45,263 nt of DNA from Candidatus Bathyarchaeota archaeon (GTDB lineage: Archaea > Thermoproteota > Bathyarchaeia > Bathyarchaeales > Bathyarchaeaceae). The translations under genes and the position numbers were made by a program. The notes below the pieces were generated by a model. The model saw only the letters and a program-made list of their open reading frames with translations. It did not search any database and was not told the DNA's origin. The stretch is taken from positions 1 to 45,263 of the forward strand of contig JASFPO010000002.1 of the NCBI GenBank assembly GCA_050115935.1. The letters are read 5' to 3'. Positions 16,893 to 45,263 of this stretch are shown here, one piece after another; positions within the stretch are counted from its first letter, which is position 1, and every line of letters starts with the position of its first letter.

Positions 16893-17321
16893 CTACTTCT
16901 TCACCAATCTTTCAGCAGGTCCTAGGACCCTCACCTTTTCTACCACATCCTTCACAACACTGGCAAATTTTTCACCTTCAGCTGCAGATACCCATGAGAA
17001 GTTTACTCTTTCAGGCTCAATCCCAAGGAATTCAAGTAGATCCTTCAGAACAGCAAATCTTCTTCTGGCCACGAGATTTCCACTGATGTAGTGACAGTCA
17101 CCAGGGTGACATCCAGAGACTAAGACCCCATCCCATCCACGTTGCAGAGCTTTTATGATAAAGTACGGGTTGACCCTTCCAGAGCAGGGAACCCGAACCA
17201 CCCGTATGTTAGGAGGATACTGCATCCTGCCTATTCCAGCAAGATCTGCTCCAGCATAGCTACACCAGTTGCACAGAAAGGCAAGTATTTTTGGGTTCCA
17301 TTCTTTTTCAGCGGATTTCAC
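16893..17321 (-). CDS. mvhD: MvhD/FlxD-like 2Fe-2S adaptor subunit (short form, 142 aa)
   Basis: FLCNWCSYAGADLAG ... VPCSGRV ... GCHPGDCHY is the hallmark of methyl-viologen-reducing hydrogenase delta subunit. Confidence 0.85.
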   Translation of the reverse strand: MKSAEKEWNPKILAFLCNWCSYAGADLAGIGRMQYPPNIRVVRVPCSGRVNPYFIIKALQRGWDGVLVSGCHPGDCHYISGNLVARRRFAVLKDLLEFLGIEPERVNFSWVSAAEGEKFASVVKDVVEKVRVLGPAERLVKK

Positions 17322-17325
17322 TTTG

Positions 17326-20355: not shown

Positions 20356-21119
20356 CTCTCCAAGGCAGTATAGAATGGGGTCATGCCCTCTACTCTGTCG
20401 AGGCTAATTAGGCCTCTGCGTCTCAGAATCACCACGTGGCCCAGTACCTGCTTGTTGTCTATCCCTAAGCGTTTGGACAAATGCTTGATTGACATTGGCT
20501 TGTTCTCTAGTAAGAGATAAATTCGGTTACGTATGTACTCGGACGAGAGAGCCTCATCCATCTTCTCATCGAATTCTTCCTGCGATATCTCCTCGCCATA
20601 GACGTTTCCTTCCTCGATCATTTTCCTCTCTCTGGCCACGAGTGCTCGTAGCCGAAAATCTTCCACTGCCTTCTTTGCTGCTTGTATACCTTCCAGTTTC
20701 TCTGAATCCATTTTTTCTTTCCGCAGCGGAGAGGGGCCAAGAACCTTGATGTGGTTTGTAAAATCTCGGATGATCTCTGCAAATCGAGCTCCCTCCGATG
20801 CAGAGACCCATTCAAGGCGTAGGCGCTCTGTCAAGCCTAATGGAGCTATTATTTTTTTGAGCATCTTGAACTTCCGTTCAGCTTCATAGTTCCCGGTCAT
20901 GTAGTGGCAGTCACCAGGATGGCAGCCCATGACAATAACGCCGTCCAGACCACTGCTCAGTGCCTCCAGTATCATGACGGGGTCAATTCTTCCAGTACAC
21001 ATTACTCTGATAACCCTCAGGTTAGAGGGATATTGAATTCGGCTAACGCCGGCTAGGTCAGCGCCAGCATAGGAGCACCAGTTGCAGAGGAAACCTAATA
21101 TTTTTGGCTCGAACTTCAT
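20352..21119 (-). CDS. mvhD: MvhD-like subunit with ~115-aa C-terminal extension ending in a winged-helix-like domain (255 aa)
   Basis: The N-terminal 140 aa are MvhD (FLCNWCSYAGADLAG, GCHPGDCHY). The C-terminus MSIKHLSKRLGIDNKQVLGHVVILRRRGLISLDRVEGMTPFY looks like helix-turn-helix plus wing. ATGA overlaps occur on both sides. Confidence 0.8.
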   Translation of the reverse strand: MKFEPKILGFLCNWCSYAGADLAGVSRIQYPSNLRVIRVMCTGRIDPVMILEALSSGLDGVIVMGCHPGDCHYMTGNYEAERKFKMLKKIIAPLGLTERLRLEWVSASEGARFAEIIRDFTNHIKVLGPSPLRKEKMDSEKLEGIQAAKKAVEDFRLRALVARERKMIEEGNVYGEEISQEEFDEKMDEALSSEYIRNRIYLLLENKPMSIKHLSKRLGIDNKQVLGHVVILRRRGLISLDRVEGMTPFYTALER

Positions 21120-24100
21120 GCGGTTGCCCTCTCCAGCAAGGCTCTTGCCTGGGAAGTGATCTGTTCATCGGTGAAGTGAGGTATGGTGACAGCCCTTTCA
21201 GGGCAACTTGCTGCGCAGAGACCACAACCTTTGCAGAGCACCACTGTTACCTCAGCCACACCCACTTCGTTCTTTCCTATTGCACCGTAGGGACAAAGTT
21301 TCACGCAAGTCCCACATCCCGTGCATGTCTTTTCATCGATTGAAGCAACGATTCCTTCGGCCTCAATCTTTCTCTTTGAAAGGATTGTACACGCCCTCGA
21401 AACAGCTGCATACGCTTGGGAAATGCTTTCTTCAATGGATTTCGGCGCGTGAGCCATTCCGCAGACGAAAACTCCATCAGTGGTGAAATCGACGGGACGC
21501 AGTTTCGCGTGCGCTTCCAAGAAGAAGCCATTCTCGTTTAAGGGAACCTTTAGCATCTTGGCTAAGACGCTGTTTTCCTCGGGCGGGACGACAGCGGCAC
21601 TCAACACCACCAGATCAGCGTCGATTGAAACCTGTTCGCCAATTGTGGGTTCATAGACTGAGACGCTTAGGATGTCTCTTCCATCTTGTGATTTGCTCCT
21701 AATGACCTCAGGTTTCTTGTCATCATCGTAACGAATGAAGACTACTCCGAGTTCTCTCGCTTTTCCATAGTAGGTTTCAATCAATCCATAAGTTCTCATG
21801 TCTCGATATAGTACGAATACCTCCGCGTTAGGATTTTTCTCCTTAATCTTCAAGGCATTTTTAACCGCCTCACCACAACACACACGACTGCAATATGGAC
21901 GGACGTTATCCCTGGAACCAACACACTGAATCATTACTACAGAATCTAGTTCATTGGCACCACCACCCGTCGAGAGACGATCCTCCAACTCTGACTGAGT
22001 GATTATCTTGGGATCCACCCCGTACTGATACTCGTTTGGTTTGTGCTCTTCACTTCCTGTAGCCACGACTACGATTCCATGATCTAAATCCTTCATTTCA
22101 GAGCCCTGAGTTATGACGGTTCTGAAGTTCCCCACATAACCAGAGATTTCCTCAACTTTGGCTCCTAAGAAAGTGTGAATCAGATGGTTTCCTTGAACCT
22201 TACCAATCAATCTTTTCAAGTACTCTTGTGGGTCTTCTCCTTCTAGCGTATAGTGAATGTTACGAAGAAACCCGCCTAACTCTTGTTCTTTCTCAGTCAA
22301 GTAAACCTCAAAACCTTGCTCAGCCAAAGCCAGAGCCGCAGTCATCCCGGACAAGCCTCCGCCAATCACAAGTCCCTTAGGAACAACATCCAGAAGTATT
22401 CTATCCAACGGCTCAAGTCTTCCAGCTTTAGCCACTGCCATCCTAACTAAGTCCTTAGCCTTCTCCGTTGCGGCTTCATGTTCGAGCATATGTACCCAGG
22501 AACATTGGTCACGGATGTTGGCCATTTCAAAAAGATACACGTTTAACCCAACTTCCCTTAGTGTTTCTTGGAACAGTGGTTCATGGGTCCGAGGAGTGCA
22601 TGAGGCCACAACAACTCTGTTGAGGTTATGCTCTTTGATTCGATTCTTGATTATCTCCTGAGTGTCTGAAGAACAGGTATAGAGATTGTCGCAGGCGTGG
22701 ACGACATTTGGAAGGGTTCGAGCGTACTCCACAACGCTCGGGACATCGACAACTCCTCCGATGTTAATACCACAGTGACAAACGAAAACCCCAATTCTCG
22801 GCGGCTGACCTCCAACATCCAGCTCTTCTGCATAAACCTTCTTCCCTACCAAGGTTCCTCGAACAGAAGACAGCAACTCACCCACACTAGCAGAAGCCGC
22901 GCTAGCCTGAGTAACAGTCTCAGGAATATCCTTGGGCGAGGAGAACATACCGCAAACAAAGACCCCGGGCCTAGAGGTTCTCATAGGGTGAAAGGTTTGG
23001 GTTTTGCAGAACCCATGCTCGTTCAGCTCAACCCCGAGGCTTTTAGCCAATTTCTTTGTGTTCTCAGATGGAGCAAAACCGACCGAAAGGACGACTAGGT
23101 CAAACTCTTCCTCATGCAGCCTTCCTTCTTCGGTCTCATATCTTATCTTTAGGTTTTTTGTCTCAGGAATCTCCTCTAATCTGGATACCCTGCACCTGAC
23201 AAATCTGACTCCATACTCATTCTTAGCCCTCTCAATGTACTTGTCAAAATCCTTCCCATAAGCACGCAAGTCTATATAAAAGATCGCGGGTTCAATCTGA
23301 CTCATATGTTCTCGGGCTATAACCGCTTCCTTTGTGGCATACATACAGCAAACCGAAGAGCAGTAACCGTTTCCACATGTGACATCTCTGGAACCAACGC
23401 ACTGTATGAAAGCAATTTTTGTGGGGATATCTCCGTCTGAGGGTCTCTGCACACGCCCGAAGAAAGGCCCAGAAGCGCTCAAGATGCGCTCAAACTCGAT
23501 GCTCGTAACCACATTAGGATATCGTCCCCAACCGTACGCGCTCTTCAGCTTCGCGTTGAACTCCTTAATACCAGGGGCAAGAACGACAGCGCCAACGTTC
23601 AGCTTAACCTTCTTCTCTTGATCGGAATAGTTTATGGCATCGGCAAGACAAACGTTCTTGCAGAGTCCACAGCCTACACACTTTTCTCTGTCGATTAGGT
23701 ACACCAAGGGGACGGCTTGCGGGTAGTTAATGTGAATCGCTGTTCTCTCACTCAAGCTTTTGTTGAAGGCATCTACGGCGTCAACTGGACAGAATTTGGC
23801 GCAAAGCCCGCACCCTGTACACTTCTCGAGGTCAACGTATCTTGGTCGTTTCCTCACCGAGACATTGAAGTTGCCAGCCTCTCCAGAAATCTCGGTGACT
23901 TCAGAGCACGTCAAGACTTCAACGTTCATGTGTCTTCCGCACTCTACGAGCTTTGGGGACAGAATGCACATGGAGCAGTCGTTGGTTGGAAAGGTTTTGT
24001 CCAGCTGCGCCATGATCCCTCCTATAGCGGAGGAGTTATCCACCACGTAAACTTTGAACCCAGACTCAGCTAGGTCGAGCGCAGCCTGTATCCCTCCAAT

Positions 24101-24175
24101 TCCTCCACCTACAACCATCACCGAACCCACTTTGCTTACTTCAGAAACCGGGTTTCCTGAGTTCATGTTTGACAT
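21116..24175 (-). CDS. hdrA: Double (tandem-fused) HdrA-like flavoprotein, copy 2 (1019 aa)
   Basis: Same two-module architecture and motif set as copy 1 (DKTFPTNDCSMCILSPK; CHCGINIGG; C-terminal CTGCGTCVKLC / CKGCGLCAASC). Confidence 0.9.
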   Translation of the reverse strand: MSNMNSGNPVSEVSKVGSVMVVGGGIGGIQAALDLAESGFKVYVVDNSSAIGGIMAQLDKTFPTNDCSMCILSPKLVECGRHMNVEVLTCSEVTEISGEAGNFNVSVRKRPRYVDLEKCTGCGLCAKFCPVDAVDAFNKSLSERTAIHINYPQAVPLVYLIDREKCVGCGLCKNVCLADAINYSDQEKKVKLNVGAVVLAPGIKEFNAKLKSAYGWGRYPNVVTSIEFERILSASGPFFGRVQRPSDGDIPTKIAFIQCVGSRDVTCGNGYCSSVCCMYATKEAVIAREHMSQIEPAIFYIDLRAYGKDFDKYIERAKNEYGVRFVRCRVSRLEEIPETKNLKIRYETEEGRLHEEEFDLVVLSVGFAPSENTKKLAKSLGVELNEHGFCKTQTFHPMRTSRPGVFVCGMFSSPKDIPETVTQASAASASVGELLSSVRGTLVGKKVYAEELDVGGQPPRIGVFVCHCGINIGGVVDVPSVVEYARTLPNVVHACDNLYTCSSDTQEIIKNRIKEHNLNRVVVASCTPRTHEPLFQETLREVGLNVYLFEMANIRDQCSWVHMLEHEAATEKAKDLVRMAVAKAGRLEPLDRILLDVVPKGLVIGGGLSGMTAALALAEQGFEVYLTEKEQELGGFLRNIHYTLEGEDPQEYLKRLIGKVQGNHLIHTFLGAKVEEISGYVGNFRTVITQGSEMKDLDHGIVVVATGSEEHKPNEYQYGVDPKIITQSELEDRLSTGGGANELDSVVMIQCVGSRDNVRPYCSRVCCGEAVKNALKIKEKNPNAEVFVLYRDMRTYGLIETYYGKARELGVVFIRYDDDKKPEVIRSKSQDGRDILSVSVYEPTIGEQVSIDADLVVLSAAVVPPEENSVLAKMLKVPLNENGFFLEAHAKLRPVDFTTDGVFVCGMAHAPKSIEESISQAYAAVSRACTILSKRKIEAEGIVASIDEKTCTGCGTCVKLCPYGAIGKNEVGVAEVTVVLCKGCGLCAASCPERAVTIPHFTDEQITSQARALLERATA

Positions 24176-24199
24176 CCTCCATGCGGTTTACTTTGCCTC

Positions 24200-24982
24200 T
24201 CACTCTCCAACTCTTCGATACTTAGGGCTGTTTCCTTCAATTCCGACGACGGAGATTAATCCATCGCGCTCGAGAGAGACTATGCTTTTCAGCACTTCCC
24301 TTGGTGAAGTTTCCACTCGCTGGGCTATCTCTTTGACAGAGAGAGAGTCTTCTTTCAAGGAGAGAAGAACTCTTCTTCTTGCAAACTCCTTTTCGACGGT
24401 TTGTAGCGTCAGTTGGTCGAATTCTTCTTGTGACACTTTCTCTCCGAAGACATTTTTGTCCTCTATGAGTTCCCTTTCTCTGCCCACCAGCCATCTAATC
24501 CTCTGCTGGGCTAGAGCCTCCTTGGCTGCGACCAAACGCGCTCTCAACTGTTGTTGCGCCAAGTTTGTTTCTTTACCAAGTGGCCCCAGCTTTCTTATCT
24601 TTACGGTGAAATCTTTGACCAAGGTTGCAAAGCGTTCACCCTCAGCCGCGGACACCCAATCGACCAATAATCGCTTGGGAGATAACCCTATGTTTTTCAG
24701 GACGTTTTTCGTCGTCTTCATCCTTCTTTCCGTGTAATAGTTTCCAGTTATATAGTGACAGTCGCCGAGGTGGCAACCCAGAACCATGACACCATCTAGT
24801 CCTTGGATGAAGGCTTCGAGAACGATGGTTGGATCAACCCTTGCTGAACACATCACCCTGATGGTTCTGATGTTTGGCGGATATTGAAAGCGGCTGACTC
24901 CAGCTAGGTCTGCGCCAGCGTAGGAACACCAGTTGCAGAGGAATCCAAGGATGTCTGGTCCAAAACTCTCTTCTAAGGTCAA
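24200..24982 (-). CDS. mvhD: MvhD-like subunit with C-terminal winged-helix-like extension (260 aa)
   Basis: The MvhD core (FLCNWCSYAGADLAG, GCHLGDCHY) is followed by an extension ending LSVKEIAQRVETSPREVLKSIVSLERDGLISVVGIEGNSPKY. It is a paralog of 20352..21119. Confidence 0.8.
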   Translation of the reverse strand: MTLEESFGPDILGFLCNWCSYAGADLAGVSRFQYPPNIRTIRVMCSARVDPTIVLEAFIQGLDGVMVLGCHLGDCHYITGNYYTERRMKTTKNVLKNIGLSPKRLLVDWVSAAEGERFATLVKDFTVKIRKLGPLGKETNLAQQQLRARLVAAKEALAQQRIRWLVGRERELIEDKNVFGEKVSQEEFDQLTLQTVEKEFARRRVLLSLKEDSLSVKEIAQRVETSPREVLKSIVSLERDGLISVVGIEGNSPKYRRVGE

Positions 24983-26691
24983 GATTTCACCTCAGCTAGG
25001 GCAGTCACTTGGGCGAGGAGCTGCTCGTCAGTGAAGTGCTGCATAGTGATCGCCATCTGGGGACACCCTGCTCCACACGCTCCGCACCCCTTGCAGGAGG
25101 CGGCTATCACTTTGGCCTTCATTCCCTTGTCGGTTTCTTCGAGTCGTATTGCCTTGTAGGGACAGATTAGCTCGCATAGACTGCAGCCCGAGCATTTGCC
25201 CTTGTCAACCATGGCAGTTAATGCTTCAGTGTGTAGTTTCTTAGCAGACATTGGGATAGATGCTCTAGAAGCCGCACCATAAGCTTGTGAAATGCTCTCT
25301 CCAACATCAGCGGGCCAGTGGGCACAGCCGCATACATAGACGCCATCTGTGGCGAAGTCAACGGGTCTCAGCTTCACATGGGCTTCAAGGAAGAATCCAA
25401 TTGGTCCGAGTGGCACCTTGAGCTTCCGCGATAGTTCCTTCGCGTCCTCATGTTGAATCAGAGGCGTTGACAACACAACCAGATCGGCCTCGATTCTGAC
25501 TTGCTCACCAATAAGCGAATGATAGACACTGACATCTAGTTTTCCATTTCTTCCTTGAGAAATTTCTGGGGGTTTTTCCGGAAGATGTCTAATGAATTTC
25601 ACGTCTTTCTTTTGAACTTCTCTGTGATATTTTTCATATTCCTTTCCATAGGTTTGGAGGTCTCGATAGAGGACATATATATCGGCATCTGGATGAAGGT
25701 CTTTAAGAAGTCTTGCATTTTTTAGCGCAGTCATGCAACATATTCTTGAGCAGTCACTTCTGCCCTCTTTCCTAGATCCCACGCATTGGATCATGACAAC
25801 TTTCCCTAGATTCTGTAATCGTCTATTCTTGAGAAGTTGCTCAAGCTGAAGCTGAGTTATTACGTTGTCATATTTCTTGTACCCATACATGCCAACAGGC
25901 TCAAAATTGACAGCTCCTGTGGCAACAATGATCGTTCCTATTCCGAGGTCTATGGTCTTCCCGCTTCTTCTCTGGATTGTAGCTTCAAAGTTTCCGATGA
26001 AGCCATCGACTTTCTTTACAACAGATGATGTTAAAATTTCTATATTTTCATTTGACCCGACCGCACTGACAAGTTGATTTACAACTTCGGATGCATCTCG
26101 CATGGTTGGATACAACTTGTTTAGGCTTCTGAGCATTCCACCCATCTCAGGTTCCTTTTCGACAATGTAGACGTTAAAACCCTGATTGGCAAGGCAGAGG
26201 GCAGCCGTCATGCCAGCGACTCCACCTCCGATAACTAAGGCAGAAGGAGTTACGTCTATTTCCGTCTCTTCTTGTGGTTGAAGTAGACTAGCCTTCGCCA
26301 CTGCCATTCTCACTAGATCCTTCGCCTTCTCTGTGGCGGTTTCTGGGTCTTGTATGTGTACCCAAGAACACTGGTCACGGATGTTGGCCATTTCAAAAAG
26401 ATACTTATTCAGACCGGCTTCTGTGCATGTAGCTCTAAAAAGCGGCTCGTGGGTTCGAGGTGTGCATGAAGCTACAACGACTCTATTTAGATTATATTTC
26501 TGTATTCCCTCCTTGATCTTGCTCAGTCCTTCTGAAGAGCACGTATAGAGATTTTCCTCTGCGTAGACTACGTTTGGCAGTTCTTTGGCGTATTCGACGA
26601 CTTCTGGCACTTCAATCACGCCGCCTATGTTGATGCCACATTGGCAAATGAAAACACCAATTTTCGGCGTCTCGTCATTGCTGTGCTCCAT
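24979..26691 (-). CDS. hdrA: HdrA-like C-module as a separate ORF (570 aa; equivalent to the C-half of the double HdrA)
   Basis: It starts MEHSNDETPKIGVFICQCGINIGG and has VIGGGVAGMTAALCLA, CVGSRKEGRSDCSRICCM and a C-terminal CSGCSLCELIC / CKGCGACGAGC. Its ATG 26689-26691 directly abuts the TAG of the upstream ORF in the same frame. Confidence 0.85.
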   Translation of the reverse strand: MEHSNDETPKIGVFICQCGINIGGVIEVPEVVEYAKELPNVVYAEENLYTCSSEGLSKIKEGIQKYNLNRVVVASCTPRTHEPLFRATCTEAGLNKYLFEMANIRDQCSWVHIQDPETATEKAKDLVRMAVAKASLLQPQEETEIDVTPSALVIGGGVAGMTAALCLANQGFNVYIVEKEPEMGGMLRSLNKLYPTMRDASEVVNQLVSAVGSNENIEILTSSVVKKVDGFIGNFEATIQRRSGKTIDLGIGTIIVATGAVNFEPVGMYGYKKYDNVITQLQLEQLLKNRRLQNLGKVVMIQCVGSRKEGRSDCSRICCMTALKNARLLKDLHPDADIYVLYRDLQTYGKEYEKYHREVQKKDVKFIRHLPEKPPEISQGRNGKLDVSVYHSLIGEQVRIEADLVVLSTPLIQHEDAKELSRKLKVPLGPIGFFLEAHVKLRPVDFATDGVYVCGCAHWPADVGESISQAYGAASRASIPMSAKKLHTEALTAMVDKGKCSGCSLCELICPYKAIRLEETDKGMKAKVIAASCKGCGACGAGCPQMAITMQHFTDEQLLAQVTALAEVKS

Positions 26692-28023
26692 CTATCGAAC
26701 CTCCTCGTGTGCTACCAGCGCTACTACTTCTGCAGCTCTCGCGGCTGCTCCACTGGCTTGTGCAACAGATTCTGGAATATCTTTAGGACCATGGCAACAT
26801 CCGCAGACGAAAACTCCTTGGATATTCGTGTCGACAGGCATCATCACGGAGTCTTTGGCTTCGAAGAAGCCGTATTCATCAAGTTTTACTCCGAGCTTTT
26901 CGCTTAGCTCCTTGTTAGACTCCTTGGGGACAAAAGCCGGGCAAAGGACCACCATATCCACTTTTAGCTCTCTCACTTCTCTGGTTATGGTATGTTCGCA
27001 AGAGATTACAAGATCCTTTGTTCTCGGATCCTCTGAAATCTCGCTAGGACGTCCTCTAATATATTGTATGCCCCAATTCTCTCTTGCTCTGTCGATGAAG
27101 CTTTGGAAACCCTTCCCAGAGGCTCTAAGGTCTATGTAGAATATGAAAACCTCAGAATCGGATTCATGTTCCTTTATTAATATCGCTTCTTTCGTGGCGT
27201 ACATGCAACATGCGCTAGAGCAGTACGAAACACCTCTTCCCAAGCCCCTTGAACCCACACACTGTATGAAAGCAACCTTGTTAGGGACTTTTCCGTCAGA
27301 TGGCCTTGTTACGTGACCTCCGGTTGGACCGGATGCGTTGGCTAGACGCTCAAGCTCCAGAGAAGTTATAACATTTTTATATCGCTTGTAGCCATATTCA
27401 TTAATTGCAGATGGATTAAGTAGATTGAAGCCCGTAGCGACGATGATAGCGGATACTTCTAGTGTGATCTCTTCAGGCTCTTGTTCAAAGTCCACAGCCT
27501 CGGCTTGACACAACTTTTCACATATTCTGCATACTCCACGTGTGAAGTATAGACAGTTTTCCTTATCGATTGTCGCAATGCGAGGCACGGCTTGCAGGAA
27601 CGGCATATAGATGGCCTGCCTCATTCCAAGGAGCATATCAAATTCGTTAGGCAATCTAACTGGACATTTCTCTGTACACGTGCCACAACCTGTGCATTTA
27701 GCCTCATCAACGAATCGAGGCTTTCTCATGACCTTTACGTTGAAAAGTCCCGCCGATCCGCTGACTTCCTCTATTTTGGAATAAGCCAGCAATGTGATAT
27801 TTGGATGGCGAAAGCACTCAATCATCTTTGGGGCAAGTATGCAAATTGAGCAGTCCAGTGTTGGAAATGTTTTGTCTAGTTGCGCCATTCTTCCGCCTAT
27901 GCTTGGGGTCTCCTCCACGAGGTATACCTTAAATCCACGGTTAGCTAGATCCAAGGATGCTTGTATCCCGGCAACACCACCACCAATCACCAAGATTGAA
28001 GAGCTTTCCTTCAAGAGAATCAC
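26692..28023 (-). CDS. hdrA: HdrA-like N-module as a separate ORF (443 aa; equivalent to the N-half of the double HdrA)
   Basis: It has VIGGGVAGIQASLDLA, DKTFPTLDCSICILAPK, an inserted ferredoxin CTGCGTCTEKCP and CVGSRGLGRGVSYCSSACCMY. It ends ...AHEEVR at TAG 26692-26694. Confidence 0.85.
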   Translation of the reverse strand: MILLKESSSILVIGGGVAGIQASLDLANRGFKVYLVEETPSIGGRMAQLDKTFPTLDCSICILAPKMIECFRHPNITLLAYSKIEEVSGSAGLFNVKVMRKPRFVDEAKCTGCGTCTEKCPVRLPNEFDMLLGMRQAIYMPFLQAVPRIATIDKENCLYFTRGVCRICEKLCQAEAVDFEQEPEEITLEVSAIIVATGFNLLNPSAINEYGYKRYKNVITSLELERLANASGPTGGHVTRPSDGKVPNKVAFIQCVGSRGLGRGVSYCSSACCMYATKEAILIKEHESDSEVFIFYIDLRASGKGFQSFIDRARENWGIQYIRGRPSEISEDPRTKDLVISCEHTITREVRELKVDMVVLCPAFVPKESNKELSEKLGVKLDEYGFFEAKDSVMMPVDTNIQGVFVCGCCHGPKDIPESVAQASGAAARAAEVVALVAHEEVR

Positions 28024-29507
28024 ACTTCACCTCTTCTTAAGTAACGATGGATAGATGCCGCGGCTCTCTTACCAGCAGCAATTGCCTCAATCACGCTTGC
28101 CGGCCCTGACACCACATCCCCACCAGCAAACACTCCGGGCATGCTTGTTTCCAGAGTGAGAGGATCTACGGCGATGGTATTCCATTCAGTGACTTCGACC
28201 ATCTCAGGGAGAAAGAAGATGTCTGGTAATTCACCGATGGCCAAGAGTATTGTGTCCAATTCCATGGTGAACTTCGAGCCCTTGATCGGTATTGGTCGTC
28301 TTCTACCACTCTCGTCAGGAGATCCTAATCTCATCCGAATACACTCTACAGCAGTAACTTGTTTATCCTTTTCTAAGATTTTCCTAGGCATCAACAGAAA
28401 ATGAATCTTTACGCCATTCCTTTCTGCTTCTTCTACCTCCAAAGGACTTGCAGGCATCTCTTCTCTAGATCTTCTATAGAGAATGTTAACCTCTTTGGCC
28501 CCGAGCTGGAGGGCGGTTCTAGCTACATCCATGGCAGTGTTGCCACCACCAACAACTCCGACTCTTTCTCCAAGTCTAGGTTGTCTCTGCAGGTTGACTT
28601 GACGCAGCAAATCAATGGCGTGTAGTATACCTCCCAAATCTTCACCTTCAACACGAAGCTTTCTGCTTTTGTGAGCTCCGGTTGCGACGAAAATCGCTTT
28701 ATATTCTTCCTTTTTTAGAAGGTCTCTGAACGACAGATCCTTACCAATGGCTGTGTTGGTTCTAATCTCTACTCCAAGATTTTCTATATACTTTATTTCC
28801 GCATCTACGACATCCTTGGGCAGCCGATATGTGGGTATTCCCACTCTTAACATCCCTCCAGGCTCAGACAGCGCCTCAAAAACTGTAACTGGAAATCCCA
28901 TCCTGATCAATTCCCAAGCTGTCGTAAGTCCAGCTGGGCCAGAACCGACTATAGCTATTCTTTCCTTACGCGTCTTAGGCAGAGGGGTTACTTCTCTTTT
29001 TCCATAGTCCGCAAGAGAGCGTTCAAGAAAATTTGAAATGTAGTTGTCAAGCTTACTGCGTTTGGGTTTTTCCTCACAGGGTCGTAGGGAAAGCCAACTG
29101 TAGACTAGAGGGAATGGAAATTGCTCTCCAAGAATTGCAAGAATTTCTTCAAGCTTGCTCAACACGTCTGGCAAATAGCCTCGTTCAACAGTCATCTCTC
29201 TTAATAGCAAGAAGATTTCCGGTAGTTTCAGCCCGTGGGGACATCTTTTGTAGCATCGATAGCACATTGCGCATATCCAGAGTCCTGTTTCGGACAGAAC
29301 GTTCTCCAAGCCAAGAGAGAGCTTGTTGAAAAAGACTCTTGGATTATAGAGCCCTGGAAAAACTCTTGCAACTGGGCAGGCTGCGGTGCAGGTTCCGCAT
29401 TCATAGCAATGTGCCAACATCTCAGCGTCGGGTGATCTTTTCGAAAGCTCCCGTGAGATTGCAGCTTGAGAGCTTCCCGAGGTGAACTGCTCTATCCTGT
29501 TGCTCAT
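28020..29507 (-). CDS. HdrC-like 2x[4Fe-4S] domain fused to a GltD/NfnB-type NAD(P)H-dependent flavin oxidoreductase
   Basis: 495 aa. The N-terminus CYECGTCTAACPV...CAMCYRCYKRCP parallels HdrC at 33686..34216 (CYQCGTCNVGCPV...CSACYTCRERCP). Dinucleotide motifs IAIVGSGPAGL and VGVVGGGNTAMD follow, as in glutamate synthase small-subunit-like proteins. Confidence 0.75.
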   Translation of the reverse strand: MSNRIEQFTSGSSQAAISRELSKRSPDAEMLAHCYECGTCTAACPVARVFPGLYNPRVFFNKLSLGLENVLSETGLWICAMCYRCYKRCPHGLKLPEIFLLLREMTVERGYLPDVLSKLEEILAILGEQFPFPLVYSWLSLRPCEEKPKRSKLDNYISNFLERSLADYGKREVTPLPKTRKERIAIVGSGPAGLTTAWELIRMGFPVTVFEALSEPGGMLRVGIPTYRLPKDVVDAEIKYIENLGVEIRTNTAIGKDLSFRDLLKKEEYKAIFVATGAHKSRKLRVEGEDLGGILHAIDLLRQVNLQRQPRLGERVGVVGGGNTAMDVARTALQLGAKEVNILYRRSREEMPASPLEVEEAERNGVKIHFLLMPRKILEKDKQVTAVECIRMRLGSPDESGRRRPIPIKGSKFTMELDTILLAIGELPDIFFLPEMVEVTEWNTIAVDPLTLETSMPGVFAGGDVVSGPASVIEAIAAGKRAAASIHRYLRRGEV

Positions 29508-34216: not shown

Positions 34217-34465
34217 CCAACTTCAGTAGTTGAATAGTCAGTTCGAGTCCCTCATTCTGAGAATAATATAAGACAGTCTGACTTGAATTTAAGTATTTTT
34301 TAGCGCGCGACAACATGGAAATCTCATTTATAGCCACAAGAATGACCCAGATGAAACTTCGACAAACGTGATTCCCTCTTTTCCCCTAAACCGGGCGTTC
34401 AGTCGGAAAATTAATATGGACAGTGTTGTTAAAGTATGCAAAACTGAGAAAAATGGTGATTTGGA

Positions 34466-37142: not shown

Positions 37143-37167
37143 AAACAGATGTCAGTCTAAGTAAGTA

Positions 37168-40233
<3,066 letters not shown>

Positions 40234-40252
40234 TGAATTGGGCTGATGTCTG

Positions 40253-40433: not shown

Positions 40434-40748
40434 GGCTGGCGAGCTGGCGGACGGCTTTCGAACGCGTTTGCGTTTGAGGAAACTCCGCCCACCGAGCAGA
40501 TATCGCAACATCCGCAAGGGTGTAAGGTGAGAGCCTTGGCTCCAGTGCAGAAACGGAACGTCGTGTCCAGCGTATGTACGATGATGCGTGTTAAGTCGTT
40601 GAGGAGTTGGATGCGAAGCGGTGAAACGGCTGTCCTGCGAGGTGAAAGGGCAAATAGACGCCTGTGAAGGGTCTGCTTGAGGCGTGGGTAGCTCGTTTAG
40701 CTGAATGCCGTCTAGAACAGAAGGCGGGTTACAACCAGCACGCCAGCC
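40434..40748 (+). ncRNA. rnpB: RNase P RNA
   Basis: P1 pairs ggctggcg (40434-40441) with cgccagcc (40741-40748). The CR-I-like gaggaaactccgccc is at 40476-40490. Other conserved elements are agtgcagaaac, ggtgaaagggcaaatag (40641-40657), ctgcttgag (40673-40681), tagctgaatg (40698-40707) and the CR-V-like acagaaggcgggttac (40717-40732). P4 forms as 8 bp with the universal bulged U (40481-40489 with 40723-40730). Confidence 0.85.
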
Positions 40749-40820
40749 ACCCCAACTGTATGCCGACCAAACGGAAAGATACTGAACGTCTTATGGGAAC
40801 TGAAGAAAAAGGGAAAAGCA

Positions 40821-40952
40821 GATTCAACCATTTTGGGAGATCGTTGAGATTCTCAAGAACTATCCAAAGCAGTACAAGTCATCTAGAAAGCAAATCGAAC
40901 AAATGCTTCAGAACCTTAACCGACTAAAAGAGAGCATTTGAGATACGCGCGC
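40821..40952 (+). repeat. Repeat family A, copy 1 (degenerate copy of the 45-codon small ORF; no start codon) ending in TGAGATACGCGCGC
   Basis: It aligns base-for-base with 42718-42849 at about 82% identity over the part I counted, and its 3' half aligns with 44794-44854. Confidence 0.85.
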
Positions 40953-40955
40953 TTT

Positions 40956-41426
40956 CTACTTCGGAATTGTTATGATATGAAAACAGCGTTCTTTGCCCCA
41001 GATTCTGGACTCTGGAACTTCCATTTTGATGTTTGGATTGACACTTGCTGCAAGTCCCTCAAACCATCGCCACGAGTAGTTCTTGCATACGATTTGCCAA
41101 GGGCCATTCAAGATTCTTACTGCTTCCATCATGGGACAGAAGCCAGTGTTTTCACCTACCACTTTATTATCTTCAACGCGTGTTCCTCTAACTCCGCCGA
41201 TTTGTTCAAGAGCCACATTCATCACGATAGCTACTGCGCTAGCATCTGTTTTTGTAATGCCCATTTCTTGTTTGATTTTCTGTCCAGTGGACTTGCCAAG
41301 TTCGTAGAAGTATTTCTGGGCTACTTTAAGTGCGTCATCCCCGAACTCTTCATAGTTGGCCAACATATATCCAATAATGGTTGTTTGGAGTGACACAAGT
41401 CTCCTCTGCTCTTCGGATAAAGGCAT
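40956..41426 (-). CDS. Small Cys-containing protein, possibly ATC-hydrolase-like (PF14196-type) family
   Basis: The likely start is Met39 of the listed ORF (MPLSEEQRR...), giving 156 aa. The pattern ...GITKTDASAVAIVMN...GENTGFCPMMEA...CKNYSWRWFEGLAASVNPNIKMEVPESRIWGKERCFHII resembles that family. This is recalled from memory and not verified. Confidence 0.4.
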   Translation of the reverse strand: MPLSEEQRRLVSLQTTIIGYMLANYEEFGDDALKVAQKYFYELGKSTGQKIKQEMGITKTDASAVAIVMNVALEQIGGVRGTRVEDNKVVGENTGFCPMMEAVRILNGPWQIVCKNYSWRWFEGLAASVNPNIKMEVPESRIWGKERCFHIITIPK

Positions 41427-41568
41427 GCTCTGCAAAACCCCCTTAATGTAGTATTCAATATTTGAATAAAAGACTATGTACATGTATCGTTTAGCGCACG
41501 CAATCTCCTCTTTTTTTCTAAAGAACTGCACACTCGTCATGCGTGTGAGAAGTGATCTAGACAGCAGT

Positions 41569-42528
41569 TTATACCTTCATGACGAGCGCTTGGAATAGAA
41601 TATAAAGCAGTATAAGAACTGCTCCACCAGTTTTAGAGATTCCATCTCTCATAATGAAGCGCCAGAATATGACGGTTGATATTAGCAAGAATGGGAGGAT
41701 CTCGATGAAGATAGTCATGTCTACCTTGAAAGGAGAGGTCAAGAGTACCAGCCCGAGTACAAGGGTTAGGTTGGTGAGGTTAGACCCAATGATGTCTCCT
41801 AATGCAAGTTGTACGCGACCACGTTTGACTGCTGTAAGATCGAGTGTAAGTTCTGGCAGTGAGGTGCCTATGGCGACTATTTTCGCGCCTATCAGGATGG
41901 GTGGAACTCCTAAGGCTACTGCTATGTTTGAGGCGGAGTAAACTGTTAAGCGAGCGGATACTACTACGATCGTGAAGCTTAGCAAGAGCGTTGCGACCAC
42001 AACGCTTTTTTTTCCCATGCTCATTGCTTTGCCGTCATTCAACTTGACAGGTGGCGTTCTTTTTCGCGCCATAAAATATGTGTTTATCAGGAAGGTGCCA
42101 AGAAGGATTATGCCGATAAAGGGACTTGGAATATCGAAAATGTGGTATTGATTTATGACAAGAAGTAAGGGGATGAGGGCTGTTATAAAAAGCATGTCCG
42201 TGAGTTCCACGAGCAAGTCAGTGGAACAGGTTTTGAGGTATCCAATGATGCCCAAGATGCCGATAACCAACCCTATGTTGAACAGGTTGGAGCCTAGGAT
42301 GTCACCGATACTGATTGCAGGAGTTCCTTCGATAATTGAGAAAAGAGCGACGACTATTTCAGGGGTGGAGGTTAGCACTGCAAGGATTATGAACCCTGCC
42401 GATGCGTCGCTCAATCGGGTCATTTCAATGAGTTTTTCGATTGATCTTATGGCAAAATGGCTAGCCGACGCTAAACCGACTACTGAGGCAATCAGAATCA
42501 GTAATTGAACTAACGTGTCTTCTAGCAT
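41569..42528 (-). CDS. Na+/Ca2+ exchanger (CaCA/YrbG-type) membrane protein
   Basis: There are two alpha-repeat motifs: LTSTPEIVVAL..GDILGSNLFNIGLVIG and GTSLPELTLDL..GDIIGSNLTNLTLVLG. About 10 TM segments. The start is placed at ATG 42528 (MLEDTLVQ...) because the upstream part of the listed ORF runs through the promoter/GC-palindrome region. Confidence 0.8.
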   Translation of the reverse strand: MLEDTLVQLLILIASVVGLASASHFAIRSIEKLIEMTRLSDASAGFIILAVLTSTPEIVVALFSIIEGTPAISIGDILGSNLFNIGLVIGILGIIGYLKTCSTDLLVELTDMLFITALIPLLLVINQYHIFDIPSPFIGIILLGTFLINTYFMARKRTPPVKLNDGKAMSMGKKSVVVATLLLSFTIVVVSARLTVYSASNIAVALGVPPILIGAKIVAIGTSLPELTLDLTAVKRGRVQLALGDIIGSNLTNLTLVLGLVLLTSPFKVDMTIFIEILPFLLISTVIFWRFIMRDGISKTGGAVLILLYILFQALVMKV

Positions 42529-42547
42529 ATTATTCAGACTTTCATAT

Positions 42548-42587
42548 GCGCGCGTTAAATATACTTTGCGTAGCGCGTACGCGCGCG
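42548..42587. promoter_or_regulatory. TATA-like box (ttaaatata, 42555-42563) sandwiched between (CG)n palindromes
   Basis: The sequence reads gcgcgcg-ttaaatata-ctttgcgtagcgcgtacgcgcgcg. The TATA centre lies about 31 nt upstream of the CaCA ATG (42528) on the minus strand. gcgta-gcgcg-tacgc is an inverted repeat. Confidence 0.45.
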
Positions 42588-42700
42588 AAAGTGTCACGAA
42601 CTCCAGCTCCCCTTCTGCATTTACGCACACTATAGACCATGAAATTATCCCATGATTCAAAAAGGTCGCTTAAGATCCTGCAACTATCTTATTAGTTCAA

Positions 42701-42838
42701 ATGCAGACAAAGACATCTGTTCAAGAATTTCGGAAAACCGTTGAGACTCTCAAGAAATATCCAAAACAGCACAATTCATTCAAGAAACAAATTGAACAAA
42801 TGTTTGAGAATCTTAGCAGGCTAAAAGAAAGCATTTGA
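42701..42838 (+). CDS. 45-aa small ORF (intact member of repeat family A)
   Basis: MQTKTSVQEFRKTVETLKKYPKQHNSFKKQIEQMFENLSRLKESI, running from ATG to TGA. It is below the ORF-track size cut-off. Differences from copy 1 include several synonymous changes, among them agg vs cga for Arg. Confidence 0.5.
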   Translation: MQTKTSVQEFRKTVETLKKYPKQHNSFKKQIEQMFENLSRLKESI

Positions 42839-42849
42839 GACGCGCGCGC
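42718..42849 (+). repeat. Repeat family A, copy 2, ending in TGAGACGCGCGCGC
   Basis: Direct repeat of 40821-40952 and, over its 3' half, of 44794-44854. Confidence 0.85.
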
Positions 42850-42943
42850 AATGAAGATTCCCAAAGTCAATAGAGCTTTTCGTCTTAAATCTTTAATGCA
42901 ACCTGTAGTTTAGATAATGTGTGAAATGGAATGAGAAAAGAGA

Positions 42944-43462
42944 GTGAGTGAAGCGTTGAAGATTCATTTCTTCATCTTGATATCTATTGCATGCATTCTA
43001 TTTGCTGGCTTGAACGCGGCGCCTCTAGTGAATGCTCAGCCCACACCCACATCACTTGCCATCGCTGTTCCTTCTCCACCACAAGGGATACCATTCTCGA
43101 CTAAATGCACAATAGAGGCGACCCTAAGAGACGAGAATGATAATCCACTACAAAACCTTACTATAGACTTTCTGTATGCATGCGATGACCATACACATCT
43201 GTTGTGGAGAGCAAAGACTGATTCAAACGGTGTAGCTTCTCTAAGATATACATTTCCAAGAAATGAAACATGGAGAATTAGTGCAATGTTTAAGGGAACC
43301 ACAAACTATGCTCAGTCAAGCAGCGAAGAAGTACTTATTATAATCATGGACTACACTCCGTATGTTGTTGGAGGACTACTCGCAGCAACAGTAATTGCTA
43401 GTGTTATAGCATACATCGTCCTTCGCAGAAGAGAGAAAACAATGCCCCCTCTTTTTCTATAG
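42944..43462 (+). CDS. Secreted/surface-anchored protein with Ig-like (carboxypeptidase-regulatory-like) domain and C-terminal TM anchor
   Basis: 172 aa. It has an N-terminal signal-like segment (FFILISIACILFAGLNAAPLVNA), a beta-rich middle with TDSNGVASL, and a C-terminal hydrophobic helix followed by RRREK. GTG start. Confidence 0.5.
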   Translation: MSEALKIHFFILISIACILFAGLNAAPLVNAQPTPTSLAIAVPSPPQGIPFSTKCTIEATLRDENDNPLQNLTIDFLYACDDHTHLLWRAKTDSNGVASLRYTFPRNETWRISAMFKGTTNYAQSSSEEVLIIIMDYTPYVVGGLLAATVIASVIAYIVLRRREKTMPPLFL

Positions 43463-43547
43463 TTTCTCCCACAAGTCATAAAAACTGAAACTGAAGACAC
43501 TTGATAGGAGGTTAGAGGTTTGGAATCTAAGAAGAATGCCTCTCGAA

Positions 43548-43626
43548 GCGCGCGCAAAGATAGTTATGAAGAAAATCTATTCTCTCACCGCTTCGCTCTC
43601 GGCTTCCCAGCCTCGTTCGCGCGCGC
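43548..43626 (+). repeat. Repeat family B, copy 1 (GCGCGCGC - 50-nt core - variable - CGCGCGCGC)
   Basis: The core 43548-43605 matches 44222-44278 with one 1-nt indel and one substitution. The indel breaks any common reading frame. Confidence 0.85.
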
Positions 43627-43703
43627 ACTGCTTGGATGAGGTGCCACAAGAATCATTCAGAACTGGAAAGAGCTTTAAGTCAAGACTATGCGTGTGTAAG
43701 ACT

Positions 43704-44207
43704 ATGAGATACTTGAGAGATTTGGATTTTTGGACTGCCTGCATCACAATTCTTGTGACTGTCTTCCTCATGGTTGCCACCTATCTTCGCTGGTTTCAAC
43801 TGAACTTCTTTGTTGGTTCATTCCGCTTCACTCATTGGCTTGTTTGGATAGGTACCATTTATGTTGCATTTGCTACACCAGCATATTATGTTCTGAAACG
43901 CCGTTACCTGAAAAAGCTTGCAACGTTTATCAGAATTCATATGTTGGGCAACTTGTTTGCCTTTTTGCTCGTATCAATTCACTTTGCCCAGCAGATTGGC
44001 AGACCGCCCCAATTCTATCCAGATCTAGGAACGGGATTGGCACTATACATTGTCATGTTCATATTGGTGGGATCGGGTTTTCTTCATAGATTCCGAATAA
44101 TAAGGAGTGTTCGACCTCACCTTAACAGATTCCTGCATGTAAGTATAACTATGTCATTCTATCTTATCATCATAGTTCACACATTACAGGGCTTGGGGCT
44201 TCTATAG
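43704..44207 (+). CDS. Polytopic membrane protein with conserved-looking His residues in TM helices (possible b-type haem or metal binding)
   Basis: 167 aa from ATG 43704 (MRYLRDLDFW...) with about 5 TM segments. His residues occur in FTHWLVW, RIHMLGN, SIHFAQQ, FLHRF and IVHTL. The listed upstream extension (43536-43703) runs through repeat B1 and was discarded. Confidence 0.5.
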   Translation: MRYLRDLDFWTACITILVTVFLMVATYLRWFQLNFFVGSFRFTHWLVWIGTIYVAFATPAYYVLKRRYLKKLATFIRIHMLGNLFAFLLVSIHFAQQIGRPPQFYPDLGTGLALYIVMFILVGSGFLHRFRIIRSVRPHLNRFLHVSITMSFYLIIIVHTLQGLGLL

Positions 44208-44221
44208 CATCGAAGCCACTT

Positions 44222-44293
44222 GCGCGCGCAAAGATAGTTATGAAAAAATTTATTCTCTCACCGCTTCGCTCTCGGCTTGAGATACGCGCACGC
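44222..44293 (+). repeat. Repeat family B, copy 2 (tail TTGAGATACGCGCACGC resembles the family A terminus)
   Basis: Direct repeat of 43548-43626, located between two convergent genes. Confidence 0.85.
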
Positions 44294-44317
44294 ACTCTTC
44301 ATTCAAAATGTAGGCGA

Positions 44318-44746
44318 TCACGCGCTGCTTATCTCTTTAAGGTCATTAGCAAATGCCTTCGCATTTTCCAAGTCCTCCTCATTTGGATTGCTCCAATTGA
44401 AAAAGAGGAACCGTCCGCGGCACTTGAAGCTGGAAACGACAATGTATCCTTTTGCTTCCAGAGCTCCTTTAAGGACGTAGATAACTTTGGGGTCAGGCCC
44501 CCCGGCAGTGGCGAAAACGGCTGCTTTATTCTTGCTGCTTGGCTGCAGTCCATCTAGAAAGCTTTGAAGTGTTTTGTGAAGCTTGCCGACGTATTGACCG
44601 CTACCGACTATGAGTAGCTCCACTCCTGAAACATCAGGAGTCTCTCTTTCTACATCAACCGCCTCGCATCCAAGTTGCTGGGCGATTGCCTCGGCCACCT
44701 TTCTCGTCTTTCCGCCTCTTGAGTAGTAAACGACCAAGGATTTCAT
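44318..44746 (-). CDS. Flavodoxin-like protein
   Basis: 142 aa. The N-terminal MKSLVVYYSRGGKTRKVAEAIA FMN-phosphate-binding-type loop and the alpha/beta length are typical of short flavodoxin-family proteins. Confidence 0.7.
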   Translation of the reverse strand: MKSLVVYYSRGGKTRKVAEAIAQQLGCEAVDVERETPDVSGVELLIVGSGQYVGKLHKTLQSFLDGLQPSSKNKAAVFATAGGPDPKVIYVLKGALEAKGYIVVSSFKCRGRFLFFNWSNPNEEDLENAKAFANDLKEISSA

Positions 44747-44785
44747 GATTTGAATCCAACAGACTCGAAAGTATTAAATGTTTAG

Positions 44786-44854
44786 GGCGCGCGCAAATTG
44801 AACAAATGTCTAAGAACCTCAGCCGACTAAAAGAAAGCATTTGAGATGCGCGCG
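44786..44854 (+). repeat. Repeat family A, copy 3 (3' half only) bounded on both sides by (GC)n: GCGCGCGC-...-TGAGATGCGCGCG
   Basis: 44794-44844 would encode QIEQMSKNLSRLKESI plus stop. The copy is truncated exactly at a GCGCGCGC tract. Confidence 0.85.
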
Positions 44855-44951
44855 AGAGATATTCGTTTTTCTCGATCGTGCATTTGTAAATATTTTTTAA
44901 CTAACTACCCAACCTGTGAATATACAATTAAAACCTAGAGGAGTTCAAGAA

Positions 44952-45263
44952 ATGTGCACAATAGTTACTATGGCAAAAAATGGTATTGTATTAGCGGGAA
45001 ATAATGAAGACTACACTGAACCTAGAACCAAGATCTGGTTTATCCCAGCATCGAAAGAAGGTTACGGTCGAGTCTATGTTGGGTTCGACTCTGCATCTCT
45101 GCCTGACAGCTTTCAAGGCGGAATGAACGAACATGGATTGTTCATGGACATGAACGCCGTCAATCCCACAGGATGGCAGAGAGACTCAGGTAAACCCACT
45201 TTCAATGGAGACCTTGTGGAAAAGATCCTAACAGATTTCGCAACGGTGCAAGAGGCTGTAGAA
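44952..45263 (+). CDS. N-terminal-nucleophile (Cys) hydrolase, choloylglycine-hydrolase/linear-amide hydrolase-like (3' end outside window)
   Basis: The frame is open from ATG 44952 to the window end. MCTIVTMAKNGIVLAGNNEDY... has Cys2 as the putative Ntn nucleophile and an N-x-D motif as in the family. AGGAG lies 10 nt upstream. It is not in the ORF track because no stop is reached. Confidence 0.5.
   Translation, partial: MCTIVTMAKNGIVLAGNNEDYTEPRTKIWFIPASKEGYGRVYVGFDSASLPDSFQGGMNEHGLFMDMNAVNPTGWQRDSGKPTFNGDLVEKILTDFATVQEAVE

Follow-up and report, generated by a model that had tools for sequence, protein, structure and literature searches.

Putative Relics of Recombinase-Linked Mobile DNA and Alternating CG Tracts in a Variable Patch after rnpB of a Candidatus Bathyarchaeota Archaeon

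Introduction

The Bathyarchaeia, archaea that abound in sediments, have almost no members in culture, and to our knowledge their non-viral mobile elements have hardly been described. We analyzed a 45,263-nt stretch of DNA from a Candidatus Bathyarchaeota archaeon (contig JASFPO010000002.1 of assembly GCA_050115935.1; this whole stretch, which seems to be the entire contig, is called the window), in which the RNase P RNA gene, rnpB, is followed by 4.5 kb of small unrelated genes, short direct repeats, and tracts of alternating C and G. The reading that we favor, with a confidence somewhat better than even, is that these 4.5 kb are a flexible patch formed by repeated integration and decay of elements that carry a tyrosine recombinase gene (int) and a winged helix-turn-helix (wHTH) gene, with joining preferentially at the CG tracts. 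The patch would then be a decayed patchwork of mobile DNA and not a new kind of gene platform. A sequence-only reading of the same stretch had proposed successive site-specific insertions, or a cassette platform, at a hotspot next to stable RNA genes.

Results

The Copies of Repeat A Match the 3′ End of a wHTH Gene

Repeat A aligns between 40823–40952 and 42720–42849 (130 nt, 80% identity), and its 62-nt 3′ part recurs at 44793–44854 with 82–87% identity. The sequence-only reading had described three same-orientation copies. They are real, although the repeat measures 130 nt where 132 nt had been given, and the start-to-start spacings are 1897 and 2006 nt (spacings of 1897 and 2005 bp had been given for the copy ends). 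An nhmmer profile stretches the first two copies, A1 and A2, to ~185–190 nt (40768–40952 and 42660–42849). The copies are delimited as follows.

40768..40941, + strand: A1, decayed 3′ relic of a wHTH gene, ~42 codons; protein homology at 40813–40938, stop codon TGA at 40939–41.
42674..42838, + strand: A2, 54-codon 3′ relic of a wHTH gene, with an upstream stop codon TAA at 42671–73.
44787..44854, + strand: A3, last 18 codons of a wHTH gene plus its stop (44788–44844); nhmmer E 9.6e-21.

A1 has no in-frame start codon, the ATG at 40793 lying in another frame. Within A2, a 45-codon open reading frame (ORF; 42701–42838) begins at an internal Met of the wHTH family and ends 2 nt before a CG tract. 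A3 is cut at its 5′ side exactly at the tract 44787–94 (codon 184) and is closed by the tract 44848–54.

A HMMER profile built from the three A peptides finds 16 proteins (profile match E 8.3e-11). Two of these are full-length (201 and 193 aa), and in both the match is to the extreme C terminus; the others are C-terminal pieces of 41–80 aa. Related loci and metagenomic contigs were compared with the window and are labeled L005, L008, L011, and L013–L022; a nucleotide profile of A matches the 3′ end of the wHTH gene in L018–L021 (E ~1e-12). We took as the wHTH family the ~200-aa neighbors of the recombinase described below (P0241, P0257, and P0250). Its members show an N-terminal winged-helix pattern with weak matches to HTH_24, TrmB, and MarR. 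An AlphaFold model is of low confidence (predicted local distance difference test, pLDDT, 60), and its secondary structure agrees with the winged-helix pattern. When P0241 was compared with the window by tblastn, residues 148–201 matched A2 (42674–42835; 56% identity, E 1.8e-14), residues 160–201 matched A1 (40813–40938; 52% identity, E 1.6e-7), and residues 184–201 matched A3 (44788–44841; E 0.97). Residues 1–147 had no match in the window, and the window contains no full ~200-aa gene with an N-terminal winged helix.

The ratio of nonsynonymous to synonymous differences (pN/pS) between A1 and A2 was 0.33 in the reading frame versus 0.8 and 1.3 in the other two (Fisher p 0.003), which indicates that the sequence evolved as coding DNA. 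Divergence of the coding type implies that the copies diverged while they were still functional genes, in separate elements, and it is more easily reconciled with separate element copies than with a dead fragment that was duplicated locally. Judged by these homologies, the copies of repeat A are 3′ relics of one wHTH gene family. The 41–80-aa orphan ORFs in metagenomes are relics of the recombinase and wHTH pair.

Other identities for A were dropped. It was discarded as a recombination site in itself, being the 3′ end of the wHTH gene. It was also discarded as a free-standing small gene: the 45-aa peptide had no word-sharing match in 5.8 billion proteins, and the profile shows the C terminus of a longer family. 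Neither A nor B, a second repeat described below, behaved as an RNA, with no Rfam match at the gathering or E-value threshold and unexceptional folding.

CG Tracts Are Concentrated within the Patch

A tract was defined as a maximal alternating C/G run of at least 6 nt; none of the eleven found in the window is in fact shorter than 7 nt (34303–09, 37906–12, 40946–52, 42548–54, 42580–87, 42841–49, 43548–55, 43618–26, 44222–29, 44787–94, and 44848–54). Nine of the eleven fall in 40946–44854, and all nine are intergenic, though the intergenic share of that region is 28%. The first 37 kb of the window hold one intergenic tract, and the tract at 37906–12 falls inside the 23S rRNA gene. An interrupted tract, CGCGCACGC, lies at 44285–93 besides the uninterrupted ones. 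Both the list of tracts in the sequence-only reading and its placing of those of the region at gene boundaries were borne out, with one position shifted (44787–94, formerly 44786–93).

Tracts were far more frequent than composition predicts. Dinucleotide shuffles predict 1.8 occurrences of GCGCGCG over the two strands; 19 were counted, a number attained in 0 of 100 shuffles. For GCGCGCGC the expectation is 0.26 and the count 5. Four copies of TTGAGAYRCGCGC occur in the window, all on the + strand, where 0 are expected; the fourth closes the second copy of repeat B. Those tracts that bound A copies or the neighboring CaCA antiporter gene are placed as follows, none with a strand.

40946..40952: CG tract closing A1, 4 nt past the A1 stop; a convergent ATC-hydrolase-like gene stops 3 nt from it.
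42548..42554: CG tract between the TATA box and the start codon of the CaCA gene.
42580..42587: CG tract at the end of homology to relatives' CaCA loci, and left bound of a 270-nt segment carrying A2.
42841..42849: CG tract closing A2, 2 nt past the A2 stop codon.

Except for the 5′ ends of A1 and A2, every boundary of A and B lies at a CG tract or within ~6 nt of one. Similarity among the A copies stops within or just past their tracts; B begins at a tract and ends ~6 nt past one. By alignment, the tract at 42548–54 is a 2-nt expansion of CGCGC in L011, and the same position reads AGCGC in L014 and GTCGC in L013.

The sole intergenic tract outside the patch (34288–34309 with its flank) abuts a TATA-like box (TTTAAGTATTTTTTA-GCGCGCG). 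This tract, 34303–09, sits in the divergent promoter region between an HdrC-like gene and a GAPDH gene.

Tracts of 7–10 nt are frequent in the variable loci of relatives and rare in conserved regions, and ~50 kb of distinct PGK-linked sequence from relatives contained no tract of at least 8 nt. When six loci were pooled, 26 of 35 tracts (at least 7 nt) were fully intergenic, versus 24% expected (p 7e-10). Of these 26, nine had a stop codon no more than 15 nt away, and no start codon came that close to any of them; in relatives, intergenic tracts often follow stop codons by 4–15 nt. Their occurrence at the boundaries of unrelated genes in relatives agrees in part with an alternative that the sequence-only reading had named against itself, namely GC tracts as ordinary promoter or terminator elements found genome-wide at unrelated genes. 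L014 and L015 (99.5% identical) part 25–32 nt before a GCGCGCGC that is present in both. Tandem hairpin repeats (TTACCCCTC...GAGGGGTAA) were seen just before this point of divergence (L014 16040–16140, L015 14642–14770).

Relatives Carry Intact Recombinase Elements and Their Relics

L018, L019, and L020 contain a full-length wHTH gene head-to-head with the gene for a 417-aa protein. This protein resembles Phage_integrase (E 2.9e-12) and, with a score short of the family cutoff, archaeal XerA (E 4.5e-17); its N terminus carries an IS1-type Zn ribbon. The intact element is ~3 kb long and is known from metagenomic contigs. In the 18-kb L019, int, the wHTH gene, and a 285-aa gene come after a coenzyme-A biosynthesis operon. 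L020, from another sample, is 99.9% identical to L019 from the recombinase side through the 285-aa gene; the two split inside a (CG)n tract 5 nt past the stop of that gene, which reads GCGCGCGCGC in L019 and GCGCGC in L020.

The 285-aa gene (L019 10870–11727) has no family match and encodes an R-x4-H motif (RSRIVH) such as occurs in HEPN nucleases; it may be defense or toxin cargo. Defense, NCBIfam, and PHROG annotation of the wHTH protein, the 285-aa gene, and the patch genes yielded nothing useful. Neither the recombinase nor the wHTH protein had a tblastn match in 50,697 phage/virus records, and no relative of the recombinase was found in IMG/VR.

Degenerate copies of the pair also occur. 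In L014 (and in L015–L017), an acetyltransferase gene that immediately precedes the CaCA orthologue stands between 141-nt direct repeats with 79% identity (L014 3969–4121 and 4859–5116). One repeat copy, the better preserved of the two, is a relic of the recombinase C terminus (E 1.5e-10), and the other matches weakly (E 0.13). We read this as the same kind of architecture as A1 and A2, with the partner gene as its source. In L022, 12 kb of sequence contain 18 CG runs together with relics of both genes, the recombinase (E 1.7e-32) and the wHTH gene.

Repeat B and an Orphan Leader

Repeat B, at 43548–43626 and 44222–44293, has a shared core of 58 nt (96.5% identity), and CG tracts bound each copy. 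The two copies bracket the gene for a membrane protein, as the sequence-only reading had observed.

43548..43626, + strand: B1, 79-nt segment bounded by GCGCGCGC and CGCGCGCGC; no Rfam match; folding z-scores −1.9 and −2.1.
44222..44293, + strand: B2 (72 nt), the B core followed by an A-type end, TTGAGATACGCGC (44277–89), and then the interrupted tract 44285–93.
43461..43522, + strand: orphan leader, homologous to the 5′ untranslated region, ribosome-binding site, and TTG start of a 154-aa gene in L014.

Because the fourth copy of TTGAGAYRCGCGC closes B2, B2 carries a minimal A-type end. There are thus four A-type ends in all (A1, A2, A3, and the 13-nt stub closing B2), all pointing the same way and each adjoining a (CG)n tract. 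L022 contains a weak B-like start (E 0.007), and the B core had no match in IMG/VR.

The orphan leader aligns by blastn with 90% identity over 40 nt, through GGAGGT and TTG, and ends ~25 nt before the tract at 43548. In L014 (14307–14383) the same arrangement, AGTTTCTYCCACAAGTCATAAAAACTGAA...GGAGGT...TTG, precedes the 154-aa gene, whereas in the window no gene body follows it. From this homology the leader is taken to be a further relic in the patch.

Genes of the Patch and the Conserved CaCA Block

The genes of the patch and its right neighbor are listed below.

40956..41540, − strand: ATC-hydrolase-like gene (Pfam PF14196, E 0.0049, below the curated cutoff).
41569..42528, − strand: CaCA (Na_Ca_ex) antiporter gene (Pfam E 1.8e-49).
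42944..43462, + strand: surface protein gene with an Ig-like domain and a C-terminal transmembrane segment (Pfam Big_3_5 8e-8 and Big_1 2e-7, both just below curated cutoffs).
43704..44207, + strand: membrane protein gene, 167 aa, no family match; TATA-like box at ~43672–80; flanked by B1 and B2.
44318..44746, − strand: flavodoxin gene (Pfam Flavodoxin_5 5.6e-12).
44952..45263, + strand: AAT/C45-like gene, cut by the window end (Pfam PF03417, E 0.004, below the curated cutoff); right neighbor of the patch.

Pfam upheld the gene identities first assigned by eye, weakly for the ATC-hydrolase-like and AAT/C45-like genes. In order, the orientations are −, −, +, +, −, and +, and a TATA-like box lies upstream of each gene. 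The start of the ATC-hydrolase-like gene is probably at 41483 or 41426, because 41499–41569 is conserved 3′ flank of the CaCA gene.

CaCA orthologues (319 aa) are up to 95% identical, and the gene is conserved in the lineage. Database homologues of CaCA, like those of PGK, carry the names Bathyarchaeia or Bathyarchaeota. The block 41499–42580 (~1.1 kb) has 87–88% nucleotide identity to relatives, and its flanks are wholly different in L011, L013, and L014. On the promoter side, homology to L011 and L014 ends exactly at the tract 42580–87.

Stable RNA Genes and the Setting of the Patch

The patch follows an RNA gene on its left.

40439..40743, + strand: RNase P RNA gene, rnpB (Rfam RF00373, 204.8 bits); left neighbor of the patch.

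The 23S rRNA gene occupies 37167–40235, with rnpB following within ~200 nt and no 16S or 5S gene nearby. The alignment of the window with L005, its closest relative, stops at 40749, just past rnpB. The 23S gene of L005 is 94% identical to that of the window, and the stretch from 23S to rnpB there (L005 12824–19736) includes four intervening genes: an Ogg-like gene, a 295-aa gene, an acetyltransferase gene, and a nitroreductase gene. Other genes lie downstream of L005 rnpB, and A, B, and the patch proteins are all missing at that place. The sequence-only reading had pointed to the rnpB regions of relatives as informative, and close relatives indeed lack A, B, and the flanking genes there.

We found no tRNA in the window, no second copy of the rnpB 3′ end within it, and no stable RNA gene in the CG-rich mosaic loci L011, L013, L014, L019, and L022. 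The proposed hotspot next to stable RNA genes is therefore not sustained: rnpB of the closest relative sits among other genes with no such elements, and the mosaics of relatives hold no stable RNA gene. There is no evidence for rnpB or 23S as an integration target, and the link to rnpB looks incidental.

Composition, a comparison suggested for 40.9–44.9 kb by the sequence-only reading, makes the patch a mild outlier (GC 43.4% versus 46.1%; tetranucleotide distance 0.20 versus 0.13–0.16). In JGI sample 3300042731, from the same strain, the order AAT-like gene, flavodoxin gene, 223-aa ORF, and 172-aa gene was assembled independently.

Discussion

A Model of Integration and Decay

In the model that we propose, elements encoding a Zn-ribbon tyrosine recombinase and a divergent ~200-aa wHTH protein would have integrated repeatedly after rnpB. 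The CG tract would be the joining place, either as the crossover core of the recombinase or as a palindromic, Z-DNA-prone microhomology in illegitimate recombination. Since the tract reads the same on the two strands, joining by either route could proceed whichever way the DNA is turned, and this would fit the mixed gene orientations. Deletions ending at tracts could then have taken out the recombinase gene along with the 5′ portions of the wHTH genes, with units of the form genes–CG–wHTH 3′ stub–CG as the outcome. B1 and B2 lie around the membrane protein gene as a Campbell-type insertion or an unequal exchange might have left them. The patch is now without a recombinase gene and without the 5′ parts of wHTH genes. 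Archaeal elements are documented to integrate in tandem and to lose the integrase gene afterward (PMC8371274). Of the successive site-specific insertions proposed earlier, what survives is that the repeats stem from recombinase-linked mobile DNA and that CG tracts lie at most repeat boundaries and several inter-genome junctions; the rnpB hotspot does not survive.

Several observations weigh against integration and decay at CG tracts. The element in L019 has a CG tract at its right edge only, the left edge (~8683) being without one, and no flanking direct repeat of the attachment-site (att) kind surrounds it, so that (CG)n is no more than a candidate att core. In neither L019 nor L022 does a CG tract follow the wHTH stop codon. 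Junctions without a tract include the 3′ edge of the CaCA block (41499), the window at 40749, and the break between L014 and L017. No conserved recombinase-arm motif flanks the tracts, where only the adjoining A/T base is enriched. The CaCA gene is conserved in the lineage, so at least some of what lies between the repeats may belong to the resident genome instead of being cargo. B has no similarity to the recombinase, the wHTH gene, or the 285-aa gene. Searches of GTDB representative genomes, JGI metagenome contigs, and IMG/VR with a conserved 20-mer of A returned nothing beyond chance matches. Finally, the window has no Phage_integrase match among the ORFs tested and no tblastn match to the L019 recombinase; the sequence-only reading had likewise seen no recombinase gene.

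Alternative Explanations

The pieces could instead be miniature derivatives of the recombinase element, resembling miniature inverted-repeat transposable elements (MITEs), each inserted in an intergenic CG tract between pre-existing genes, so that the brackets would be neighboring same-orientation insertions. We consider this unlikely. The CG-bounded pieces in question are the 270-nt A2 segment, B1 (79 nt), B2 (72 nt), and A3 (68 nt). Each has CG tracts on both sides, and relatives hold further CG-bounded segments (L011 1483–1622, L013 5956–6139, L019 11733–11836, and L022 8421–8550), of which that in L019 has extended inverted ends (GCGCGCGCGCTCTT versus AAAGACGCGCGCGC). Miniature elements would also suit the resemblance of B2 to a B-type start fused to an A-type end, the abundance of 41–80-aa fragments of the wHTH C terminus in databases, and the CaCA gene as a resident of the lineage. 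However, the pieces are unlike in length and interior, with only 11–14 nt common at their ends, and A1 has no left tract. The flanking tracts (7–10 nt) are unequal, with no clear target-site duplication beyond the tract, and a search for more copies in ~200 kb of related loci and three public collections came up empty. The varied 5′ truncation points resemble decay and not a defined element.

A functional role for the tracts, as gene-end or promoter-proximal signals (e.g., protein-binding or 3′-end signals), would make their coincidence with junctions incidental and leave A and B as unrelated debris. The intergenic bias of the tracts and their closeness to stop codons but not to starts speak for such signals. 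So do the several tracts that abut TATA-like boxes (34303, 42548, 44787, and L011 1483) and the apparent growth of the tract at 42548 from a short CGCGC/AGCGC promoter motif in two of three relatives. Near absence from conserved regions, on the other hand, makes the tracts too patchy for a general signal; no U-tract follows them, and the repeat boundaries and the L019/L020 break fall exactly inside tracts and not just near them. We regard this explanation as quite improbable.

We assign a similarly low likelihood to a more elaborate form of the mobile-DNA reading, a gene-exchange system of the lineage's own in which W(CG)4–5W tracts a few bases past stop codons would be the sites, run by the recombinase and its wHTH partner and moving or swapping single accessory genes with their promoters, in either orientation owing to the palindromic core. 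If true, this would amount to an integron equivalent in archaea, with a site of quite another kind.

An integron-like array proper, with single-gene cassettes, the CG-bounded pieces as attC, and the recombinase encoded elsewhere, is very improbable. Short sites after the stop codons of unrelated genes, the link of the repeats to the tyrosine recombinase family, B copies flanking one gene, and the report of integrons in archaeal metagenome-assembled genomes (PMC9668308) all count for it. Yet pairs of the R″ (RYYYAAC) and R′ (GTTRRRY) cores number 0 in 40750–45263 versus 4 in the other 36.9 kb, and the pieces fold no notably better than shuffles (z +0.3 to −2.3). The recombinase scores 35.6 bits against a cutoff of 265 with the integron-integrase model TIGR02249, the window contains no intI, and the CaCA unit is without a 3′ site. 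The genes have their own promoter-like sequences and mixed orientations; together with the lack of attC-like sites and the tract-free 3′ edge of the CaCA block, this also speaks against the cassette platform of the sequence-only reading.

That the repeats and junctions are chimeric joins is scarcely credible: the contig is metagenomic and repeats can mislead assemblers, but tracts of 7–10 nt are far below assembly k-mer length, gene order was assembled independently in JGI 3300042731, and the repeats are diverged (80–88%) and not collapsed copies.

Comparison with Known Systems

The patch resembles archaeal tyrosine-recombinase elements, whose known traits include SSV-type integrase fragments (PMC8371274), in that its repeats are tied to a tyrosine recombinase family, unrelated genes lie between direct repeats of gene fragments, and the recombinase gene is gone from the decayed copies in the window; relatives carry C-terminal recombinase relics in the same kind of arrangement. 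It differs in having no tRNA or other stable RNA gene as target and in its joints, which lie at 7–10-nt alternating CG tracts. The repeated fragment, moreover, comes from the neighbor gene of the recombinase and is neither a target-gene fragment nor integrase. With integrons and clusters of attC sites lacking integron-integrases (CALINs; PMC9668308) the patch shares unrelated single genes split by short sites just past stop codons and a tyrosine recombinase in the background. Unlike these, it has no attC sequence or structure, no IntI-type recombinase, and no attI, and it combines per-gene promoter-like sequences with mixed orientation.

The likeness to MITEs and other short intergenic palindromic repeats lies in short, non-coding intergenic pieces with palindromic ends, some of which resemble fused element ends (B2). 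In contrast to MITEs, the terminal inverted repeat is the CG tract only, the interiors are unrelated, lengths range over 68–270 nt, and a multi-copy family was not seen in the loci searched.

Z-DNA-forming (CG)n tracts are hotspots of deletion and rearrangement. In agreement, alternating CG of at least 8 nt occurs at breakpoints here, and its length varies between near-identical sequences, as at the L019/L020 break. Unlike such hotspots, the tracts are over-represented and not purged, and they are concentrated in variable regions, which suggests a process that creates or keeps them. We found no report in the literature of such 7–10-nt alternating CG joints or tracts in archaea.

The recombinase and wHTH gene pair marks a family of small integrative elements, and alternating CG tracts of 7–10 nt offer a simple flag for variable, rearranged parts of these genomes. 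Should the tracts be actual crossover sites, they would constitute a previously undescribed recombination target and a practical way to map genome flux in uncultured archaea. Should they not be, the patch would still be a tidy case of decayed elements that mimic a cassette array.

Other Observations in the Window

Three tandem paralogous units of ~3.8 kb each, with 69–82% nucleotide identity, occupy 17000–28050. They encode HdrA-like flavoprotein/ferredoxin fusions (1009, 1019, and 570+443 aa), an FlpD/MvhD-like subunit in the unit tested, and further small proteins. The span 13.8–30.9 kb is missing between the GCV_H and Pyr_redox genes in L005 and L008.

An MttB-family gene lies at 5189–6694 (− strand), with a PYLIS_3 Rfam match above the gathering score at 5581–5687. 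Its reading frame runs unbroken for 501 codons and lacks an in-frame amber codon where one is usually found. The gene probably encodes a non-pyrrolysine MttB homologue, the PYLIS_3 match reflecting coding similarity.

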